A stretch of DNA of 64,000 nt from an uncultured Candidatus Saccharibacteria bacterium (lineage in GTDB: Bacteria > Patescibacteriota > Minisyncoccia > UBA6257 > Colwellbacteraceae): positions 75,600-139,599 of the forward strand of contig CAZLHU010000001.1 of the NCBI GenBank assembly GCA_964559765.1, given 5' to 3'. The position numbers and the translations under genes were made by a program. Under the pieces are notes generated by a model, which saw nothing but the letters and a program-made list of their open reading frames with translations, searched no databases and was not told the DNA's origin. Below are positions 11,185-51,201 of the stretch, in pieces. The stretch's first letter is position 1. Every line of letters begins with the position of its first letter.

Positions 11185-12090
11185 CTATTTGCCGGCCTTC
11201 TTTAAGGCGGCGTTTATTACCGTCTGGAAAGCGCTGAATGGCTCCGCCCCCTGCAACACCTGGCCGTTTACAGTGAAACTGGGCGTGGCCGCCTGCGGGA
11301 AGATGGAAGAGGCCTGTTTTATGTCACTCGCTATGAGGCTGCTGTACTTCTTGGAGTCGAAACAGCTGGTGAACTGACTCACATTCATGCCTAATTTGGT
11401 CGCTATCTGTATGAACACGTCTCGGGTCAAATCGCCTGAATTTTCGCCTGGATTAACCCCTTTGAACGCATATAAGGCATCGTGATACTCCCAGAACTTG
11501 TTCTGATCCATGGCGCAGCTTGCAGCCATAGCGGAATCCTCCGACTCATGCCCGCCCTGCACGAAATTGTCTATGACCACGAGGTTTTTGAACACCTCGC
11601 TCACCTGGCCAGAGGCCACGTATTGCTGCCTTATCAGTGGTTCGGTCTGATTGAAATATGCCTCGCAGAAGCTGCATTGATAGTCTCCGTATTCCACCAA
11701 TTGGACCGGAGCCTTTGGATTGCCCAAGACGACCTCGTTACCCACGGTGGTCTGGGGATAAGGCAGGCTGGTGACGAAATTGGGCATTGTTACGGCAGCG
11801 GTCGTGGTTGCGACTCCCGAAGGCTGAACCGCCGTGCCGCCAAACCTACCCGGCCCGAACACATACAGCATGGTCCCCGATATCAATACGGCCGCCACGA
11901 GTATGCTTATCGCAAGGAACCTATTTGTTCCCGCAGCGCTGTCTGTCTTGGCCACATTCGGCTCTTCTACAATTACATCCACTTCGACGTTAGGCTTATT
12001 TCCCAAATTAGAATCTTTATTTTCAGGCATAAGACGATTATATAATGCCCATATCTGTTTAACAATTTTATATGGGTATAGATACCACAA
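11185..12090 (-). CDS. DsbA-like thiol:disulfide oxidoreductase, membrane-anchored
   Basis: Thioredoxin-fold protein with a CSFC active site and an N-terminal TM anchor. The true start is probably the internal Met (MPENKD...). Confidence 0.7.
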   Translation of the reverse strand: MWYLYPYKIVKQIWALYNRLMPENKDSNLGNKPNVEVDVIVEEPNVAKTDSAAGTNRFLAISILVAAVLISGTMLYVFGPGRFGGTAVQPSGVATTTAAVTMPNFVTSLPYPQTTVGNEVVLGNPKAPVQLVEYGDYQCSFCEAYFNQTEPLIRQQYVASGQVSEVFKNLVVIDNFVQGGHESEDSAMAASCAMDQNKFWEYHDALYAFKGVNPGENSGDLTRDVFIQIATKLGMNVSQFTSCFDSKKYSSLIASDIKQASSIFPQAATPSFTVNGQVLQGAEPFSAFQTVINAALKKAGK

Positions 12091-12158
12091 ACCGCCCTTT
12101 CGGGCGGTTTGTGTTCTCCTTATACGCTAGGAGATAACGGTTCGGCAGATGTCTAAGG

Positions 12159-15100
12159 TTAGTCAGACAATCCGCTTAACACCGGTCCAGCGATTGGATA
12201 GGTGAGACCTGCTGGCAATGTGTTCAGATTGCTGCCGGTGGTGCTGGCACTGCCATCACCCCAGTACAATCCGGTAATTGACAACTGGTATGTCCCGTTG
12301 CTGTTTGTTGGAGCACCAGTATTGCTGGATGATACAAGCTTGAATGCCAAGTCATGTACCGAATTAGCTGGGATGTCCCAACCAGCAGCTGCGGTGGTCG
12401 TAGCTGCGGTTACGCCGCCAAGGAAGACCGTGCTTGTGGTTGAGCCACTTATCGTGACGGTGGTCGTGCCACTTGTGGTGACTAGATCAACGCCAGGATT
12501 TGCGACATCGACAAGCTGGAAGGTCATCTTGGTTCCGGACGTAGCTACCGCACCCAGGGTTTGACCAACGTCAATAGCCTGGAGGTAGATGTCTCCACCT
12601 GCTCCGGCTCCGAAGCCGAACTCTCCATCGATGTTACCAACTCCAGCTGCCGACGTGATTGCCGGTGGCTGTACTGCGGTAACTCCGGCCAAGAGCGAGC
12701 GGAACAAGGTTATAGTCTTGCCGTTCGGGCCCGTAGTGGATTCAGTGGATGTAGCAGACACACCCGTGGTCAGACTTGCATCGTATCCGATGATCTGGAA
12801 CGAGTGGGTGCTAGCCTCAGAACCGGCTGGCGCGCCGTTGTAGGTCGTAGAATTGCCGACCAATTCAATCTGCGCATAGCCGCTCTGTGGGACGACGATC
12901 GGAGTGCCGAACACGAATGTTGCGGTTCCGGAAGCCGCGCCGGTGGATATCAACGAAGGCTGTGTAGCCAAAGTTGCTCCATTGCTTACGATCGAGAAGT
13001 TGTTGAAGGCGCCTGGTACCGTGGTCGTGGTGTTATTGCCACTGCCAGTTGCGTCCAATACCGTAATTTGTGTAACGGTGACTGGGCCGGTAGCGGGAGC
13101 ATTCAAGCGGTAGATGCCCAAGGTGTTGGCTGATGTGCCCATGCCCATAGGTCCTGCCACTGGAGTGTTAGGATCGACGGATACGCTGGACAATAGCGAG
13201 CCCTGAGTAACTGTTACGAACTCTCCGGTAGCTGAAGCGGCGGCGGCATTGTTGCCGGCTGTCGCGTTCACGCTAGAGAGATTCGCCAAGATCGTGTTTG
13301 TTGTGGTTGCAGCTGAGTTCGAGAGTGACGCATATACATCGACGGTAACCGATCCATTTGGCTGGATGGTGGTCGGGGTAGATGCGTTAAACGTGTACGA
13401 ACTGCCCGCTGTTACGGATCCTGCTGGGGTTCCGATAGCGACTCCATTCACATCCACGGAAAGGTTTGAAAGCCATGCCGCTGGGACGGTTGAAGGAATA
13501 GCTATAACTATACCAGTCAAGATAGCTGGGTTGACCTGGCCTGCTTGCAAGATGAATGACGCAATCTTCGAAGGTGAGCCGGCTGACAAAACTGGAGTCC
13601 CGAAGGATCCGTTTTGATATCCGGTCAAGTTCGATGAGTTGGCCAATACCTGCAATGTCGGCGAGGACTGATTGGACGGTCCGACGGTCGCATAATTGGA
13701 CTGCGACTGGCCGGTTACGGCCACAGTAGAGCCAATTGATCCGACAGCCGACACGGTGCCCTGGACCGTTAAGGTCTCAGTGCTGCCCGACGGAATGATG
13801 TAGTTCAGGTTAGAGAACGTCACGGTTCCGTCAGCCGCCATAGATGACTGAGTCGTTCCAAGCTGGGTACCGTTGATCAAAACCTGGACGTTTGTGGCAG
13901 CAGAGCTACCAGTCAACGTTAATACCAAGGTCTGCAAGCGGATATTGTCACCCGAAGCTAGAACGGTGAAAGTACCGAAAAGCGAATTGGAGTTGCCTAC
14001 AACTGCATACAAAGATGTAGAAGAGGCCGAATTAACTACCAATCCACCTGCGGCTACGGTCACATAGGACAGATTCTCGACGAACGACTGGCCCGATATG
14101 GCGGTTGCGCCAATACCGACACCATATGCGTTGTCGACAGCCTGGATGTCCGAAGCCTGCTGTACGGTGAACTGGAAGTTATCGCTAACCCCACCCGTAA
14201 CATCAGCATAGAGCGATAATGTCGCCGTCTGCCCGGAAGCGAGCATCAAAGGTGCCGCCGAAAGGTCAAACTGAGCGATGTTGCCGTTCAAGGTAGAGAG
14301 CACAGCTCCCTCCTGCGTGCCGCTGTTGGACAAATAGATGTTCTGGATGTCATTGGTCGGCTCGCTGCCGGTCATGGTGAATCGAAGGCTGGTTACCTTG
14401 ACCGGGTTATTGCCCGCCTGCAAGGTGAACTGGCCTACGAGGTTGTTCTCCTGACCAGCGTTGATTGTCGTGCTGGCGCTGATGTTGTCAAAGGTTAACG
14501 TAGCCAAATTGCTGACGTTAGCCAATGTCATCGGGCTGCCAGTCAATGGGAAATTCCCAGCGACAGATACACCGCCGGCCGTCACTACATCGGAAGCCGC
14601 TGGAAGCGAGAGTTCGATGATGTGGCTGGCGCTAGTAGAAGCGTTGTAGACGTCCGCGGTCACTGTGACAGTGGAAGTCTGACCGGCGCTAACCGTAAAG
14701 AGTCCCGTTCCACTTGTGAACGTGATAGCTCCGTTGGAAATGCTCTGGTCGGTTGAAATGCGGGCTCCGCCCTGGTAGAGGTAGACATTCTGGAGGTCAG
14801 CGTCCTGGGACAATCCCGAGCGCTGTACCGTCACTGTATCTACTGTTACCGCTTGTGAGCCAGCTGTGAAGTTTAAGGCCAACATTGGGACGCTAACTGC
14901 GCCGACGGCAATATTGCCGGCAACTGGGTTATTCGAAGCCAATGAGACGCTTACACCGCTACCCGCTGGAACGACTGTCGTTCCGTTGCCGGTGGTGGTG
15001 GTTGTGGTTGTGGTGGTAGTAGTTGTAGTGCTGCTAGCCGCCAACGCTGCGCGAGTTAATGGGCCGAAGAATCCTGAGGCTGGAGAGACTCCATTAGCAG

Positions 15101-15455
15101 CCTGCCACTTGGCCAAGGCCGCTTTGGTCGCTGCGCCAAAGTAATTCGTCGGTGCTGAAACTGCTGTAAGGTAGCTTCCGTTGATCAAGAGCTGTTGAAG
15201 GGCTCCTACGTCTGCTCCTGTCGAACCCACTGTGAGGTTGCGGGTGAAGTTGTAAGACGAAGAAGGAGCGCTCGAAGAAGTTCCGAGCGAAGCCTTCAAA
15301 GTGTTGATCTCGGCCATCAAAGCATTGATTTGAGCCTGGACGCTAGAAGTCGTCTGCGCTCCCACTGCTGGGACCATTACAAACGAGCTAGACAAAAGCC
15401 AGGCAACCGTTGCCAAAGAAAGCCCGAGGGCTGCCACTTTGTTTAGATTTTTCAT
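12159..15455 (-). CDS. Giant secreted surface protein: signal peptide, short coiled coil, PG-binding (PG_binding_1-like) domain, poly-Thr linker, ~900 aa S/T/G/A/V/N-rich beta-strand region
   Basis: 1098-aa ORF. The N-terminal signal peptide is MKNLNKVAALGLSLATVAWLLSS. The segment LTVGSTGADVGALQQLL...YFGAATKAALAKWQAANGV...GPLTRAAL matches the peptidoglycan-binding domain consensus, and a run of 13 consecutive Thr follows. The rest is low-complexity and rich in short strand-like T/V/S repeats, typical of adhesin or S-layer-like fibrils. Confidence 0.75.
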   Translation of the reverse strand: MKNLNKVAALGLSLATVAWLLSSSFVMVPAVGAQTTSSVQAQINALMAEINTLKASLGTSSSAPSSSYNFTRNLTVGSTGADVGALQQLLINGSYLTAVSAPTNYFGAATKAALAKWQAANGVSPASGFFGPLTRAALAASSTTTTTTTTTTTTTGNGTTVVPAGSGVSVSLASNNPVAGNIAVGAVSVPMLALNFTAGSQAVTVDTVTVQRSGLSQDADLQNVYLYQGGARISTDQSISNGAITFTSGTGLFTVSAGQTSTVTVTADVYNASTSASHIIELSLPAASDVVTAGGVSVAGNFPLTGSPMTLANVSNLATLTFDNISASTTINAGQENNLVGQFTLQAGNNPVKVTSLRFTMTGSEPTNDIQNIYLSNSGTQEGAVLSTLNGNIAQFDLSAAPLMLASGQTATLSLYADVTGGVSDNFQFTVQQASDIQAVDNAYGVGIGATAISGQSFVENLSYVTVAAGGLVVNSASSTSLYAVVGNSNSLFGTFTVLASGDNIRLQTLVLTLTGSSAATNVQVLINGTQLGTTQSSMAADGTVTFSNLNYIIPSGSTETLTVQGTVSAVGSIGSTVAVTGQSQSNYATVGPSNQSSPTLQVLANSSNLTGYQNGSFGTPVLSAGSPSKIASFILQAGQVNPAILTGIVIAIPSTVPAAWLSNLSVDVNGVAIGTPAGSVTAGSSYTFNASTPTTIQPNGSVTVDVYASLSNSAATTTNTILANLSSVNATAGNNAAAASATGEFVTVTQGSLLSSVSVDPNTPVAGPMGMGTSANTLGIYRLNAPATGPVTVTQITVLDATGSGNNTTTTVPGAFNNFSIVSNGATLATQPSLISTGAASGTATFVFGTPIVVPQSGYAQIELVGNSTTYNGAPAGSEASTHSFQIIGYDASLTTGVSATSTESTTGPNGKTITLFRSLLAGVTAVQPPAITSAAGVGNIDGEFGFGAGAGGDIYLQAIDVGQTLGAVATSGTKMTFQLVDVANPGVDLVTTSGTTTVTISGSTTSTVFLGGVTAATTTAAAGWDIPANSVHDLAFKLVSSSNTGAPTNSNGTYQLSITGLYWGDGSASTTGSNLNTLPAGLTYPIAGPVLSGLSD
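14990..15040 (-). repeat. Triplet tandem repeat (ACC/ACT/ACA)n encoding poly-Thr13 in the surface protein
   Basis: The plus strand reads ggtggtggtggttgtggttgtggtggtagtagttgtagt. The antisense frame gives the V13 run visible in a spurious ORF-track entry. Confidence 0.8.
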
Positions 15456-15876
15456 TCGACTTTAATTTGTTTAATTTCGATTTGTGTTTTGAACCTTTGT
15501 TCTTCTTAACCAATCGTAGCTGCTGCTTCGATCGGATATAGGGAAGAGCAAGGTTCTTCCGGAAGATCGTCCGCTTGCGTCACCATCGACCGGCTTCCCA
15601 ACTCGTGAGGCGTGGGCTAACCAATGGCCGCAGACAATCCTAGAAACTTGTTAATTGGGCTGATCATTTGCCTGAAATCCAGACAAATTAAAAGCCCCAC
15701 AGGTGTGAGGCATTGGAAATCGCTAAATGCGACCATAACTACGAAAATCTTTCGGCTCGCCTCACACAAGCCTTATTCGATTATAACGTAGGCGGCTGGG
15801 CCTTGCAACAGAATAAATTGTGGATTGTCCCATTGCGGAGAACACAGCCTAGCAGGGAATCTTATCCCCTACTAAC

Positions 15877-16653
15877 TTATAACGCTATTATTCCCCGCTT
15901 CGTTACTCCCCCAGAGGAAGAATTTACAGTCCCGTCAGAGGTTGACCCAAAGCCGTCCCTAGACACATCAACAAACATCTTATTTTTGACCCTGTAATAG
16001 CTAAATGGTCCCTGTATGGCCCCGAATCGCTCTATGGAGTTATTCGAGATAAGCGCTTGTAGATCATTTCTTAGCGTTCTTTCGCTTACGCTTGGGAATT
16101 TCTCGATCATATCCTTCATTCGGCAACCATTCGGCAAACCCTTTATAAACTGTAGTATTGCCGATTGCCGATTGCCTGCTTGATTGGTATCCAGGGAGGA
16201 TGGCTTGGTAAATTTAATAGCTTCGGGGGAGGTGGGTTTGGGTTCTGAACGCACTTCCGATTTGTTGGCTTGCCCAGTCGGGAATCCCATGATTGGTTTA
16301 CTTGCCTCAGTTTTATCGTCTTTGCCGAACATAGCCTCCAAGTCGACATCTTCAACGCCGTCCGCCAATTGGTCTACCGCCGATTTTAGGTTCGATAATT
16401 CGCGTATAAGCACCTTGCTGTTCAACGGCTTTATCTCGCCGACCGCTTCGGCAAGACGCACCAGTTGCTCTAGTTCATTTATGGAAACAAGCGCGTCGTT
16501 TATGCCGGATACGGATTTGACCGTCAGGTTAACCGATGCCGATTCAAGGGCGGCGCGCAGCACGGGCTGGTCGATCAAAGCGCACACTCGGAAAACGGCG
16601 AAGGATATCTCTCTGGCGTGATCGGAAATGTTTGGCCTGTCTGCCTTGTTCAT
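15877..16653 (-). CDS. Hypothetical regulator: N-terminal helical bundle, S/T/P-rich linker, C-terminal winged-helix (DeoR/HTH_11-like) DNA-binding domain
   Basis: The C-terminal segment NRQSAILQFIKGLPNGCRMKDMIEKFPSVSERTLRNDLQALISNNSIERFG looks like a wHTH. The protein lies directly upstream of the giant surface protein gene on the same strand, separated by ~420 nt. Confidence 0.45.
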   Translation of the reverse strand: MNKADRPNISDHAREISFAVFRVCALIDQPVLRAALESASVNLTVKSVSGINDALVSINELEQLVRLAEAVGEIKPLNSKVLIRELSNLKSAVDQLADGVEDVDLEAMFGKDDKTEASKPIMGFPTGQANKSEVRSEPKPTSPEAIKFTKPSSLDTNQAGNRQSAILQFIKGLPNGCRMKDMIEKFPSVSERTLRNDLQALISNNSIERFGAIQGPFSYYRVKNKMFVDVSRDGFGSTSDGTVNSSSGGVTKRGIIAL

Positions 16654-24168: not shown

Positions 24169-28754
<4,586 letters not shown>

Positions 28755-48684: not shown

Positions 48685-51201
48685 CTATTGCTTATCAAAC
48701 CTTATTTTATCGCCATCAACCGTAGCCGAAATCACAGTTCCTCGGTCGAATGACATCGATAATATCATCTCGGAAAGCGGTCCCCGCAATTTTTCAGATA
48801 TAACCTCCCTCAATGGCCTTGCACCAAACACTGGGTCATACCCCCATTCGGCTAATTTGGATAATGTCTCCTGCGGAACGTTTAGCTCAATGTCTTTTTC
48901 GCTCTTCAACGTATCCCTTAACTCGTTTATCTGGAATCGGGCTATATTTACTATGTCCTCTTCACTCAAACTGCGAAAGACTATCACATTCATACGGTTA
49001 AGCAACTCTGGATGGAAAACGTCGGTCAGTTTATCCTTGAACTCTCCGGTTATATCCTCCATTGTCCGTCCTTGAGCCAGCTCACTCTTAATAAAATCCG
49101 AGTGGGCATTGGAAGTCGCGATGATTATCGTATTTTGGAAACTCACCGTACGGCCGAGATTGTCGGTCAGCCGGCCGTCGTCGAAGACCTGCAGGAAAAG
49201 ATTAAGTATGTCCGGGCTGGCCTTTTCGAACTCATCCAGCAGCACGAGGCTATATGGATGTTCTATCACTGCGTCGGTGAGAAGTCCGTTCACCGCACCG
49301 TCCGGCGAGCCGATCAGTCTCATAGCGCTTCCCTTGTCCTGGTATTCAGACATGTCGAAACGCACCATTGCATTCTCAGACCCAAACTGGACCCTAGCCA
49401 ATATTTTGGACAGTTCCGTTTTACCTACGCCGGTCGGTCCGACGAATAGGAATGAGCTTATAGGCCCGCCCTTCCGCATGATGCCGCTGCGGTATTCGCG
49501 GAGAGCCCGCGACACCGATCTTACAGCTATCTCCTGGTCCACGAAGTGCTCATGAATTATGTCCTCGAGGTGCAGTAGCTGCTCCCTCTCCGCCTTGCCG
49601 GCTTGATGGATAGGGACTCTTGCCCGCTTTTCGGCTACCTTGGCGACGTCTTCGCTGACGATAGATTTCTGCCCGTTTCGACTGGCCTCTGTAAGAGCCT
49701 CCTTAAGAAGGTCGTCGGCAGAAGCCGGCAATAGTTTCGTCCTGAAGTATCTCTTGGCTAACTGGACCGCGCTCTTTATCGCCGCGTAAGTTATGGTGAC
49801 ATGATATATTTTCTCGAGGATGATGCTGTCGTAGACCATTATCCGCTCAGCTTGGTCCTCACTCACCTCCTCTACTGGTATCTCCTGGAATGCGCTGGAA
49901 AATACGCTATCGGTCTCGATGAGTTGTTTGTATTCCTTAGGATATGTCGTACCGATCGTCGGAAAATCATTGGAGATGACCAACGGCAGTAAAGTATTGG
50001 CTGCGGAAAGCTCCCTGGAGGCTGATGTGCGAGACAGGTCGTGGATGCCCGGTATGTAAAGGATTATATTCCCCGCCGCCTCTATCTCGCTGAATACTGT
50101 TTTTATGCGGCGCTGCAGTTCCCCTTGGTCAGCTCCCGACACCAATGCATTTATATCGATGGCAACCAGCCTTTTGTCGAACAGCGGCGCCGGAACTTCG
50201 TCCCTGTCGATCATGTATGCCAGATGGGAGATCAGGGTTTCCTTGCCGACGCCCGGATCGCCTATCAGTAGGGCGTTTGGTTTATTCGGCCGCGAGATGG
50301 TATTGATCAGTCTTTCATATTCTTTCTCATGGCCGATCAGGAAACCTATTTTGTCCGCCCTCGCCATGTCGGTAAGGTCGGAGCTTATCTTATCCAAAGC
50401 CGGCGTGGGTCTTGCTGTCCAAGCGCGGTTCATAAAGCGATGCTTCACCCGATAGGAGTGCCCGGCAAATCCACCCAAGCTCGACGGCATACGCGTAGTA
50501 TGTGGTAATGATTTAAAACGGCCGAAAATTAAAGCTTTTTCCAGGTCATCCGGCGCTACTTGGAATAGATCGAAGAGCTTTGCTATGTCTGGGTCGCCTA
50601 CGGAAGACATGCCGGCAAATAGGTCGGCTGGATTTATTTCGTCCGTCTGTCCGGCCAGAGCCTGGCTCATGGCAGCCACAGCAAGATCCTCTCCGAGCTT
50701 TGCCAATTGAACTCGGGTATATTTTACCGATGTGCTTTTGCTTAGATGTTCCATGAGCTTGGAATTGAACTCGTCCGGCGAGATGTCGAGACGACGTAAG
50801 GCCTCTTTGACCTCATTCCTCGATACTAGATCTTTGCTCAAATGCAGATAGGGATGCCCTCCGAAAATCTGGGCGCGACTGAACGCCGCGAGCATCAGAC
50901 CCATGGCCTGCGGACTCATGTATTCCGCTGCATTGACGTCCCCTGTTTTGGGCGACTTAAATAAAGACCTTTCAGATTGATTGCGATGGATAAAGCGGTC
51001 GGCCAGATAAAGCAGCAACAATGCGCCGGTTGATTTCATCCACGCCTCTCCGGACAGCAGGAAAACAATCGCCCCCACAGTCAGAACCACCATCCAAACA
51101 TAGATGATTATATTCAGGATAGTTCTGGTCGACGGCGACATGGCCAACCTCGGATCTTTAAATTGGATATTAAGTGATGGCATGGTTTGTAAATGCGCCA
51201 T
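48685..51201 (-). CDS. ClpA/ClpC-like two-domain AAA+ ATPase with N-terminal transmembrane anchor
   Basis: 838 aa with two Walker A motifs (GDPGVGKETL, GPTGVGKTELSK) and a sensor/ClpB_D2-small C-terminus. The first ~70 aa contain 1-2 hydrophobic helices (ILNIIIYVWMVVLTVGAIVFLLSG). Confidence 0.85.
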   Translation of the reverse strand: MAHLQTMPSLNIQFKDPRLAMSPSTRTILNIIIYVWMVVLTVGAIVFLLSGEAWMKSTGALLLLYLADRFIHRNQSERSLFKSPKTGDVNAAEYMSPQAMGLMLAAFSRAQIFGGHPYLHLSKDLVSRNEVKEALRRLDISPDEFNSKLMEHLSKSTSVKYTRVQLAKLGEDLAVAAMSQALAGQTDEINPADLFAGMSSVGDPDIAKLFDLFQVAPDDLEKALIFGRFKSLPHTTRMPSSLGGFAGHSYRVKHRFMNRAWTARPTPALDKISSDLTDMARADKIGFLIGHEKEYERLINTISRPNKPNALLIGDPGVGKETLISHLAYMIDRDEVPAPLFDKRLVAIDINALVSGADQGELQRRIKTVFSEIEAAGNIILYIPGIHDLSRTSASRELSAANTLLPLVISNDFPTIGTTYPKEYKQLIETDSVFSSAFQEIPVEEVSEDQAERIMVYDSIILEKIYHVTITYAAIKSAVQLAKRYFRTKLLPASADDLLKEALTEASRNGQKSIVSEDVAKVAEKRARVPIHQAGKAEREQLLHLEDIIHEHFVDQEIAVRSVSRALREYRSGIMRKGGPISSFLFVGPTGVGKTELSKILARVQFGSENAMVRFDMSEYQDKGSAMRLIGSPDGAVNGLLTDAVIEHPYSLVLLDEFEKASPDILNLFLQVFDDGRLTDNLGRTVSFQNTIIIATSNAHSDFIKSELAQGRTMEDITGEFKDKLTDVFHPELLNRMNVIVFRSLSEEDIVNIARFQINELRDTLKSEKDIELNVPQETLSKLAEWGYDPVFGARPLREVISEKLRGPLSEMILSMSFDRGTVISATVDGDKIRFDKQ

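Follow-up and report, generated by a model that had tools for sequence, protein, structure and literature searches.

The gene at 12159..15455 on the minus strand of the window (the whole 64,000-nucleotide stretch of DNA that was analyzed) encodes a 1098-aa surface protein that is probably the principal S-layer-type coat protein of a Paceibacteria-class Patescibacteria bacterium. To our knowledge, the cell surface of the Patescibacteria, which make up a very large share of bacterial diversity, is almost unknown at the molecular level, and this locus provides a concrete, testable candidate for their coat: a peptidoglycan-anchored protein with six domains in a family of about 1,700 clusters. If this reading is correct, the protein could be targeted in cell surface proteomics, in the labeling of cells that have not been cultured, and in studies of phage and host recognition. 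An earlier sequence-only reading had proposed a wall-tethered adhesin or S-layer-like fibril; the S-layer-like option fits better, whereas the fibril is unsupported. New beyond that reading are the discordance between anchor and body, a conserved partner gene encoding a DeoR-type winged helix-turn-helix (wHTH) protein, and a conserved three-hairpin leader predicted from sequence. For organisms in which very few regulators are known, the leader RNA and the wHTH gene linked to it give an uncommon point of entry to the study of gene regulation.

Export and wall anchoring

The coding sequence starts with ATG, and all features described below lie on the minus strand unless noted otherwise. The mature protein has 1065 aa, a mass of 105 kDa, a pI of 4.1, no Cys, and few Met and His residues. 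The S/T/G/A/V-rich composition recognized earlier holds (T 14%, S 13%, A 12%, G 11%, V 9%), with K, R, D, and E together making up 5.5%. The gene had also been described as the largest in the window, but an open reading frame at 25233..28754 that encodes a class I tRNA synthetase is longer, at 1173 aa.

A heuristic reading of n-, h-, and c-regions placed a Sec-type signal peptide, likewise named in the sequence-only reading, at residues 1-33 (15357..15455), with K2 and K6, a hydrophobic core at residues 7-31 (25 residues; mean Kyte-Doolittle value of 1.88), and predicted cleavage after VGA (VGA-QTT). Cleavage-like A-x-A sites are kept in homologs (ANA-Q, AQA-Q, and AHA-A), and residues 1-35 have pLDDT values below 50 in the AlphaFold model. 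A related protein with a peptidoglycan-binding domain (PGBD) has a SignalP probability of 0.998 (PMC10936435). The short coiled coil suggested earlier corresponds to a helix in the AlphaFold model at residues 36-56 (15288..15350), which shows 4-3-4-3 hydrophobic spacing and in which conservation reaches 90% or more at the heptad positions I43, L46, and L53; it may aid oligomerization of the protein. A weak FlxA-like match falls on the coiled coil in 9 of 42 family members.

The proposed PG_binding_1 domain is a full-profile match to Pfam PF01471 (profile positions 1-57; 35.5 bits against a gathering cutoff of 23; E value of 1.1e-8) at residues 67-141 (15033..15257), is matched in all 42 relatives, and shows the three-helix peptidoglycan-binding fold. 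It is followed by a linker of exactly 13 Thr residues, as originally counted (residues 143-155), within a predicted disordered region at residues 143-162 (14970..15029). Together, the signal peptide heuristic, the PG_binding_1 domain, and the linker support the reading of a secreted protein that is tethered to the wall through its peptidoglycan-binding domain. The exported protein would dock noncovalently on the thin peptidoglycan wall through this N-terminal domain, and the Thr linker would let the chain cross the wall or extend away from it. No covalent-anchor (LPXTG) sorting motif was found at the C terminus, which reads ...AGPVLSGLSD.

A body of six diverged beta-sandwich domains

The AlphaFold monomer has a mean pLDDT of 87.2 (70 or higher for 985 of 1098 residues) and is all beta from residue 165 onward. 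The body of about 930 aa is built from a single type of cohesin-like beta-sandwich of about 150 aa, present in six diverged copies that were delimited by the model and by profile comparison: D1 (residues 163-316; 14508..14969; pLDDT above 90), D2 (residues 317-470; 14046..14507), D3 (residues 471-600; 13656..14045), D4 (residues 601-745; 13221..13655), the variable D5 (residues 746-912; 12720..13220), and the most variable, D6 (residues 913-1098; 12162..12719), which is presumed to be outermost. The six are mutually homologous at the profile level (hhalign probabilities of 91 to 99%; 95 to 99% for D1 against D2-D6). The arrangement between domains is uncertain, since the pTM of the monomer is only 0.49. 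The recurring strand-like motifs seen in the sequence-only reading represent diverged strands of these homologous domains, and the confident fold into globular beta-sandwiches leaves the "fibril-like" low-complexity region without support.

Mean identity within the family falls from 58% in the anchor to 43 to 44% in D1-D3 (44.5% in D2), 39% in D4, 31% in D5, and 28% in D6. The six domains would form the coat, with homotypic lattice contacts made by the better-conserved proximal D1-D4 and the fast-evolving distal D5-D6 exposed to the environment. No Pfam domain other than PG_binding_1 was found in 42 family members, and the body has no Pfam model. Its domains resemble the fold of cohesin modules (2vo8, 3ul4, and 6kgc) and of TTHA1873 (7wrk); the likeness is of fold alone, with identity of only 8 to 15%, no Pfam cohesin match, and no known dockerin partner. 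The top Foldseek matches, to alpha-2-macroglobulin-like proteins, were rejected, as they are generic beta-sandwich strings with TM scores of 0.10 to 0.12 and the protein has no Cys for a thioester CxEQ motif.

Self-BLAST found no repeats within the protein. Tandem repeats in the gene are limited to the Thr run and one 24-nt sequence present twice (TRF), and the concern that the long region could be a collapsed-repeat assembly artifact can therefore be dismissed.

Family distribution and mosaicism of anchor and body

At least 469 full-length homologs were found (1060 to 1320 aa; 30 to 64% identical), the protein was matched in 581 GTDB species representatives, and a search with the body only returned 1,716 clusters at 50% identity. 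The family is confined to Patescibacteria, mostly Paceibacteria, and includes members in Kaiserbacteria and Doudnabacteria loci; all homologs come from metagenome-assembled genomes of the Paceibacteria/Minisyncoccia type, in agreement with the small-genome organism surmised from the sequence. Comparison of relatives did not reveal the length variation expected of a repeat stalk: full-length proteins cluster at 1051 to 1334 aa and lack near-identical tandem repeats. Each locus carries one copy, as does the window.

The body is also found on N-terminal modules other than the PGBD. DNA similarity between the window and a syntenic relative (L012) ends at 15040, and the linker of that relative is poly-Ser, compared with the Thr13 of the window; a recombination breakpoint between anchor and body was located in the linker (14970..15029). 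The histories of anchor and body are discordant, so the body module was swapped, having changed hands in evolution separately from the anchor. Such mosaicism suggests that an exposed module is traded between lineages, like the S-layer cassettes of pathogens. In several relatives, genes for Wzy_C, glycosyltransferase, and sugar modification proteins lie downstream, as in S-layer glycosylation clusters.

Evidence for an S-layer-type coat

An S-layer-type protein is favored over an adhesin because the approximately 1,700 clusters keep the same length and number of domains, because there are no near-identical tandem repeats and only one copy per locus, and because the gene combines the strongest codon bias in the window with a consensus-like promoter. 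The proxies for expression comprise the lowest effective number of codons among the 51 open reading frames of the window (44.6, against a median of 55.5), the TTGCAA-17-TATAAT promoter, and the long structured leader; the skewed amino acid composition could partly explain the codon bias. An acidic pI, an absence of Cys, and few Met and His residues are typical of S-layer proteins. Counting against a coat, the charged-residue content of 5.5% is below that of classic S-layer proteins. No homology to known S-layer families (SLH, CWB2, RsaA-type, or solved S-layer proteins) was found, nor was any solved S-layer protein a top-ranking fold match.

A further argument comes from a 2024 preprint in which proteins that agree with this one in size, taxon, and type of anchor are predicted to form p6 lattices (bioRxiv 10.1101/2024.05.28.596244). 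Using AlphaFold-multimer with planar symmetry, and thus on computational evidence of its own, that study predicted Patescibacteria S-layer proteins of 1131 to 1274 aa forming hexamer-plus-trimer lattices and named the Paceibacterales type a novel S-layer class; its proteins come from Nealsonbacteria, Doudnabacteria, Kaiserbacteria, and Kazan and include A0A1G2EN61 (1131 aa), A0A0G1WWP5 (1173 aa), A0A1F5NRV7, A0A1F4NSF7, and GMX59286.1 (1185 aa) (bioRxiv 10.1101/2024.05.28.596244). The present family shares with the Paceibacterales proteins the phylum, class, length range, multidomain plan, and wall-anchoring module; the two are likened by these features and not by alignment, and cluster lookups and a Kaiserbacteria-seeded search did not return the accessions. 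The leader RNA, the wHTH partner, and the anchor/body mosaicism are not described in the preprint. GMX59286.1 stems from the study whose highly expressed proteins bear peptidoglycan-binding domains, and in three Paceibacteria the genes of unknown function with the highest expression include those for PGBD proteins (PMC10936435). As a point against the coat, one PGBD protein in that source, by Kuroda et al., has 692 aa, compared with about 1100 aa for the present family (PMC10936435). An apparent S-layer has been seen on "Ca. Nealsonbacteria" by cryo-electron microscopy.

The protein shares a signal peptide, a noncovalent wall module, beta-rich assembly domains, an acidic pI, and an absence of Cys with Gram-positive S-layer proteins, such as the SLH-domain proteins of Bacillus and Geobacillus and the SlpA of Clostridioides difficile with its CWB2 modules. 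Both combine a conserved anchor with an exposed part that diverges or moves between strains as a cassette, and glycosylation genes lie nearby in some relatives. In contrast to SLH and CWB2, which bind secondary wall polymers, the PG_binding_1 anchor is predicted to bind peptidoglycan itself, and the body consists of six copies of one domain without a Pfam model.

Two other functions were weighed against the coat. The main rival, a wall-anchored adhesin with an Ig- or cohesin-like stalk whose variable D5-D6 bind the host cell surface, seems unlikely to us, even though the pace of evolution is highest in D5-D6 and lineages have exchanged the entire body, as host-driven selection would predict. 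Host attachment has been proposed for highly expressed PGBD proteins by Kuroda et al. (PMC10936435), and a role in attachment can coexist with an S-layer. However, the length and domain number stay fixed even between very distantly related lineages, which presumably have many different hosts, neither self-BLAST nor TRF found near-identical tandem repeats, no recognizable tip or lectin domain was found by Pfam in 42 members, a C-terminal sorting signal is absent, and the codon bias is the strongest in the window. The class of fibrillar, repeat-stalk adhesins in particular was rejected, given domains related at the profile level only, a tightly kept family length, no tip, and no LPXTG motif. A wall scaffold or enzyme-like protein, in which the anchor targets a carbohydrate-binding or hydrolytic beta-sandwich array to the cell's own or a prey's peptidoglycan, is very improbable: PG_binding_1 is typical of wall hydrolases (the SleB N-terminal domain 6tci, the Streptomyces Zn DD-peptidase 1lbu, and phage endolysins such as 5nm7), and the body domains are weakly similar to noncatalytic modules of sialidases and GH123 beta-N-acetylgalactosaminidases (BNR_assoc_N, E value of 0.006), but here the anchor carries no enzyme and tethers a noncatalytic array of about 930 aa, no catalytic domain was found in Pfam, NCBIfam, or PDB for the protein and 41 relatives, all six domains are copies of one noncatalytic fold, and Gly, Pro, and aromatic residues make up most of the invariant positions, as would suit conservation for structure more than for catalysis.

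Upstream regulator gene, promoter, and structured leader

The gene directly upstream of the coat protein candidate, recognized earlier as a same-strand wHTH gene, encodes a 258-aa protein with an N-terminal helical domain and a C-terminal DeoR-type wHTH (15877..16653); HTH_DeoR was matched by 33 of 35 members of its family (best E value of 3.4e-10). Of about 84 related loci, 48 have a homolog (25 to 59% identity) at the same position and on the same strand, and the pairing of the surface protein gene with a wHTH gene upstream is thus conserved. Between the two lies a sigma-70-type promoter, TTGCAA-17 nt-TATAAT (15780..15808), with 10 of 12 consensus matches. Its TATAAT is invariant in alignments with L001 and L003 and with L012 and another related locus, L086. 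The gap between the genes, formerly read as a 420-nt untranslated region, does measure 421 nt, but the promoter occupies part of it, which leaves an untranslated leader of about 318 nt (15456..15773). This leader has no Shine-Dalgarno sequence and is A rich ahead of the ATG.

The predicted structure of the leader has a minimum free energy (MFE) of -105 kcal/mol (z = -4.05), with none of 100 shuffled sequences equally stable, and its identity among the window, L012, and L086 is 83%, compared with 70 to 72% in flanking coding DNA. Three hairpins were distinguished. P1, at the 5' end of the transcript (15754..15772), has a GGCUUG/CGAGCC stem and a 7-nt U-GUGAGG loop, and the -10-like box in related loci mostly ends 6 to 12 nt ahead of it. 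Covariation supports P1: across 38 sequences, 82.7% of cells are paired, compared with 69.2% after shuffling (0 of 500 shuffles as high), and the covariation score is 0.508, against 0.04 to 0.19 in slid registers. When 1.03 Mb was searched with a P1 covariance model, 58 of the 60 matches lay upstream of a surface protein gene on its strand; the sole match in the window is at 15750..15776 (E value of 1.4e-4). The second hairpin, from a terminator scan (15684..15711), resembles an intrinsic terminator, with GCCUCAC-ACCU-GUGGGGC followed by UUUUAAUUUG and with a 5' arm complementary to the loop of P1. A hairpin and U-run between P1 and the third hairpin, Pb, occur in 41 of 45 loci, against 1 of 220 coding controls, and the 5' arm reads CCUCGC, CCUCAC, or UCUCGC in 30 of the 45, with complementarity to the loop of P1 in at least 30. 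The MFE structure of the window makes use of this pairing, with GUGUGAGGC paired with GCCUCACAC. Pb (15584..15622) carries a CCUCAC loop (15605..15610) and is followed by the conserved GGUCGAUG. GTGAGG...CCTCAC was found upstream of the surface protein gene in 52 of 81 loci, compared with 0.8% of background windows, and the stem around CCUCAC averages 5.9 bp, compared with 3.2 +/- 0.27 bp with permuted partners. The hexamers in the loops of P1 and Pb are perfect complements of each other, whereas support for a seventh loop-loop base pair is not significant (P of about 0.05).

The leader is thus predicted to be a conserved RNA with three hairpins and an attenuator-like layout. Rfam 15 has no family for it: neither the window nor 10 related loci gave a match at the gathering score, and the best match in the leader (E value of 0.1) is far below that score. 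With a GC-rich hairpin and U-run and an upstream P1 loop able to pair with the 5' arm, it could act as a transcription attenuator, an mRNA stabilizer, or both, and the co-conserved upstream DeoR-type wHTH protein would be the likely regulator. A tentative proposal, possible rather than probable, is that it represents an undescribed class of cis-regulatory RNA, defined by a 5' hairpin with a GUGAGG loop, a terminator with a CCUCGC or CCUCAC arm, and a CCUCAC-loop hairpin, that gates the major surface protein across the Paceibacteria by terminator/antiterminator switching set by the wHTH protein, the surface protein, or an envelope-state ligand. It is doubtful that the promoter, P1, and terminator instead form a separate small RNA gene of about 90 nt with no read-through attenuator, and that its GUGAGG loop pairs with the CCUCAC loop of the mRNA, either in trans or in cis. 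The -10 box, 5' hairpin, and hairpin with U-run would make a complete small transcription unit in the 41 of 45 loci, and the exact complementarity of the loops fits such pairing; however, a scan of the window found no second promoter between the terminator-like hairpin and the ATG, the complementarity of the 5' arm to the P1 loop is the classic layout of an attenuator, and the seventh loop-loop pair lacks significant support.

Leaders of surface protein genes are known from Lactobacillus, in which a 5' hairpin in the slpA leader stabilizes the mRNA, and from Thermus thermophilus, in which slpA has a long leader and the regulators SlrA and SlpM. The attenuator-like leader described here shares with such S-layer leaders and with classical attenuators a long untranslated leader on a surface protein gene, a 5'-terminal hairpin, a hairpin and U-run with a 5' arm that can re-pair, and a DNA-binding protein encoded or acting nearby, but it has no sequence or Rfam relationship to them. 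It also differs from them in that the competing element is the loop of a hairpin (GUGAGG), with another loop complementary to it (CCUCAC) farther downstream. At the other end of the gene, 46 nt past the stop codon, a terminator scan and direct sequence reading identified a 12-bp GC-rich palindromic hairpin (12086..12113; no strand assigned); although the U-run on the gene strand is poor, this hairpin is likely the end of the surface protein transcript.

A predicted secreted protein with a peptidoglycan-binding anchor domain

The large gene occupies exactly the coordinates that the sequence-only reading assigned to it (12159..15455), but on the minus strand, and encodes 1098 aa from an ATG start. 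A Sec-type signal peptide is indicated heuristically: the lysines K2 and K6 come before a hydrophobic stretch spanning residues 7-31 and a cleavage site between VGA and QTT, and the homologues have a matching N-terminal layout with A-x-A sites. It is followed by the short coiled coil, a helix at residues 36-56 with a heptad pattern in which I43, L46, and L53 are conserved at ≥90%, and by a PG_binding_1 domain, which the Pfam check placed at residues 79-138 with a score of 35.5 bits, above the cut-off of 23 (E value, 1.1e-8). The spacer is a run of exactly 13 Thr residues (143-155). PG_binding_1 is the sole significant Pfam domain of the protein, for which NCBIfam gave no match and a sequence search of the PDB gave weak matches to peptidoglycan-binding domains and nothing else. 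The protein is rich in S/T/G/A/V, as had been noted (T, 14.2%; S, 12.6%; A, 12.5%; G, 10.8%; V, 9.3%), lacks Cys entirely, and has 5.5% charged residues; the mature form is computed to have 1065 aa, a mass of 105 kDa, and a pI of 4.1.

One copy of the gene is present within the 64-kb window. Its tandem DNA repeats are the Thr run and one 24-nt unit repeated twice, with nothing more, and the lack of long repeats, together with hundreds of full-length homologues, rules out an assembly artefact of collapsed repeats. Contrary to what had been claimed, the large gene is not the largest of the window; that place is taken by the ORF at 25233..28754 (minus strand; 1173 aa), which encodes a class I aminoacyl-tRNA synthetase with tRNA-synt_1, Anticodon_1, and DUF5915 domains. 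A histidine-phosphatase domain (His_Phos_1; E value, 2.3e-27) is inserted within this synthetase at residues 499-664.

A body of six predicted beta-sandwich domains

An AlphaFold2 model of the 1098-aa monomer, built from an alignment of 111 homologues, has a mean pLDDT of 87.2, with 721 residues at ≥90. Disorder is confined to the signal peptide, residues 55-65, and the Thr linker, and the chain is beta-strand throughout from residue 165 to the end. Self-BLAST had suggested that there are no internal repeats, a result overturned by profile-profile comparison (hhalign) after the family alignment was split at domain boundaries into six pieces, D1 to D6: all fifteen domain pairs are related, with probabilities of 91-99% and E values of 1e-6 to 3e-18. 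The confident fold and the fifteen related pairs together indicate that the region of ~930 aa, as modeled, is a series of six copies, old and diverged, of a single ~150-aa beta-sandwich. The sequence-only reading was largely correct in what it observed and right as to the kind of protein, a wall-anchored surface protein, but its picture of a fibril-like, low-complexity region gives way to six beta-sandwich domains.

Foldseek searches of the PDB returned generic strings of Ig-like domains (PrgB, the MG domains of alpha-2-macroglobulin, and integrin legs) with TM scores of 0.10-0.17. An alpha-2-macroglobulin-like reading was ruled out by the absence of Cys and a TM score of about 0.1. Pfam recognized PG_binding_1 alone in 42 family members, so that the beta-sandwich repeat is one without a Pfam model.

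Family distribution and modular architecture

The whole-protein search found at least 469 homologues, nearly all full-length and 1060-1320 aa long, at identities of 30-64%; those that are named all come from metagenome-assembled genomes (MAGs) of the Paceibacteria, Minisyncoccia, or Parcubacteria group. Among the GTDB species representatives scanned, 581 loci were confirmed, with complete genes encoding 1051-1334 aa and labels that include Wolfe-, Colwell-, Lipton-, Kaiser-, Doudna-, Jorgensen-, and Sungbacteria, among others. Several MAGs in which this Paceibacteria-type gene has syntenic flanks (related loci L012, L025, L037-L040, and others) bear the title "uncultured Candidatus Saccharibacteria" or even titles naming Bryobacterales, Acidobacteriota, Terriglobia, or Thermoleophilia; MAGs with such titles are probably mislabelled or contaminated bins.

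A search with the body alone (residues 163-1098) matched 1,716 clusters (50% identity) at an E value of ≤1e-3 and 1,156 at ≤1e-10. In some of the matches, including the homologous proteins P0249 and P0344, the six-domain body is unchanged in kind but is preceded by another N-terminal module, ~200 aa long, which contains repeated "G-x-L-[IV]-K...V-Y-Y...G-K-R" units. Pfam had no match for the alternative modules of these subfamilies, which presumably represent another wall-binding anchor. Because the same body is found on differing N-terminal modules, the architecture is modular. Within the subfamily carrying the peptidoglycan-binding domain (PGBD), mean pairwise identity drops along the chain from the anchor to the distal domains (PGBD, 58%; D1-D3, 43-44%; D4, 39%; D5, 31%; D6, 28%).

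Gene neighbourhoods and an anchor/body mosaic

The large gene recurs in two neighbourhoods. Context A has the order SIMPL-HtrA-ClpB-membrane protein-gap-large gene, often with Wzy_C, glycosyltransferase, and sugar-modification genes 3' of the large gene; context B, found in the window and in related loci L012, L086, and L007, has the order SecG-iPGM-wHTH-gap-large gene. In three context A loci (L001:10790-15282, L085:11691-15585, and L087:11403-19267), Wzy_C, Polysacc_synt, glycosyltransferase, dTDP-sugar, and methyltransferase genes come after the large gene. The adjoining sugar and glycosyltransferase genes hint that the S/T-rich surface protein is glycosylated in the context A relatives. 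The window has thioredoxin-fold genes (DsbA-like, glutaredoxin-like, and TrxB) in place of the sugar genes.

As a yardstick of genome distance, iPGM replaced ClpB. The window encodes an 838-aa AAA+ protein (48685..51201, minus strand), but its match of ~40% identity to the ClpB found beside the large gene elsewhere covers the C-terminal half only, so that the two are not orthologues; the clearly ClpB-like parts are the second ATPase module and the C-terminal D2-small domain. Identities of iPGM (77%, 81%, and 79%) place the window, L012, and L086 at about equal distances from one another. This does not hold for their large proteins: those of L012 and L086 are 63% identical, whereas either is 37-40% identical to that of the window.

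Comparison of 12159..15455 in the window with L012:5001-8513, L086:5119-8607, and L085:8001-11315 revealed a mosaic, in which the leader, signal peptide, and PGBD go with those of the genome's relatives (83% identity) and the six-domain body is nearest to proteins of the other neighbourhood. The PGBD of the window is 83% identical to those of context B proteins versus 52-60% for context A proteins (P0003, P0004, and P0007), whereas D1-D4 are 57-73% identical to context A proteins versus 25-44% for those of context B. Nucleotide similarity between the window and L012 (~72%) runs through the flank, leader, and anchor up to 15040 (residue 138), ends at the Thr linker, and resumes past the gene at 11920, placing the breakpoint near 15040. 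These sequence comparisons are most simply read as a replacement of the body module in a gene whose promoter, leader, and anchor were vertically inherited.

Function of the surface protein

We consider it somewhat probable that the surface protein is the main surface-coat protein, of the S-layer type. The N-terminal PGBD would tether the coat protein, the proximal body domains would form the layer, and the fast-evolving distal domains would be exposed. This reading is favored because the architecture is fixed across a huge family and because the large gene ranks first in codon bias among the 51 ORFs of the window (Nc of 44.6 versus a median of 55.5) and has a consensus-like promoter and an elaborate leader. 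The S-layer-like composition, the anchor/body modularity with its cassette-like replacement, and the glycosylation genes adjoining the large gene in relatives point the same way, as does the literature on predicted lattices, PGBD protein expression, and cryo-EM. A preprint (bioRxiv 10.1101/2024.05.28.596244) predicted lattices of hexamers and trimers for Patescibacteria proteins of 1131-1274 aa and termed the Paceibacterales type a novel class. In Kuroda et al. (PMC10936435), PGBD proteins rank among the most highly expressed unknown genes of three Paceibacteria; one protein of that study, PMX_810_sub_00350, has 692 aa. An apparent S-layer has been seen by cryo-EM on "Ca. Nealsonbacteria," and a 2026 review does not yet name an S-layer protein for Patescibacteria.

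Counting against an S-layer-type protein, no similarity to solved S-layer proteins was found, and the monomer pTM is 0.49. When lengths and names were compared, a homologue search seeded with a Kaiserbacteria member had not recovered any protein of the preprint, and cluster look-ups of ten homologues gave GenBank MAG accessions only and none of the preprint's UniProt ones; the likeness of those predicted S-layer proteins to the present family rests on size, taxon, and anchor type. Likened on these grounds, the surface protein would add one more member to a class proposed from computation and never characterized by experiment. The main rival is a host-attachment adhesin, a role that is compatible with a coat. 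No catalytic domain appeared in the protein or in 41 relatives, which makes an enzymatic role unlikely. More novel than the surface protein itself are the attenuator-like leader RNA, the partnership with the wHTH gene, and the swap of anchor and body modules.

Promoter, leader RNA, and upstream wHTH gene

The wHTH gene reported upstream on the same strand lies at 15877..16653 (minus strand) and encodes an N-terminal helical domain, a low-complexity middle, and a C-terminal DeoR-type wHTH; HTH_DeoR was matched by 33 of 35 homologues. Such a gene lies 5' of the large gene, on its strand, in 48 of ~84 loci and in both neighbourhoods, a pairing that makes the wHTH protein the obvious candidate regulator of the large gene.

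The gap between the two genes is 421 nt, in line with the untranslated region of 420 nt described previously, but it contains a putative promoter, TTGCAA-17-TATAAT (15808..15780, minus strand), leaving a leader of ~318 nt. Alignments with distant loci show no variation in the -10 box. There is no Shine-Dalgarno sequence in the leader, and an A-rich stretch precedes the ATG. Across the window, L012, and L086, leader identity is 83%, higher than that of neighbouring coding DNA, and the predicted fold of the leader (-105 kcal/mol; z, -4.05) is far above shuffled controls in stability. Searches with nhmmer using the window leader found close relatives only, and neither the window nor any of ten related loci gave a match to an Rfam 15 family.

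In ~56 of 86 loci (related loci are L001-L087), the three-hairpin leader RNA precedes the large gene by 150-600 nt; in the window, it lies at 15456..15808 (minus strand). The first hairpin, P1, lies at the transcript 5' end and has the loop N-GUGAGG. Its stem covaries: 82.7% of cells are paired versus 69.2% after shuffling, with none of 500 shuffles as high; doubly changed cells number 41 versus 13.9; and the score is 0.508 versus ≤0.185 in slid registers. A P1 covariance model gave 60 matches in 1.03 Mb, 58 of them, including loci outside the training set, at 150-600 nt upstream of the large gene and on its strand; the single match in the window is at 15750..15776. Downstream of P1, a terminator-like GC hairpin with a U-run is present in 41 of 45 loci versus 1 of 220 coding control segments, and its 5' arm is CCUCGC, CCUCAC, or UCUCGC, complementary to the P1 loop, in 30 of the 45. 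The third hairpin, Pb, has CCUCAC in its loop, usually followed by GGUCGA. MAFFT with RNAalifold lost the register of Pb and predicted no structure; a register-free stem score with partner permutation gave a mean stem around CCUCAC of 5.9 bp versus 3.2 ± 0.27 bp for permuted partners. Of 81 loci, 52 have GTGAGG...CCTCAC upstream of the large gene, versus 0.8% of background windows. Neither a 7th nor an 8th pair added to GUGAGG:CCUCAC reached significance (P values of 0.05 and 0.78), so that direct loop-loop pairing is unproven.

This layout is attenuator-like and may constitute a terminator/antiterminator switch. Alternatively, the leader may serve as a 5'-end stabilizer, or a segment of it may be a separate small RNA. 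Six loci, mostly of the Kaiserbacteria type (L045, L077, L080, L081, L082, and L083), lack the GUGAGG/CCUCAC leader and have in common GTTATCCACAC, located ~250-410 nt upstream of the large gene, which holds the perfect DnaA-box consensus TTATCCACA.
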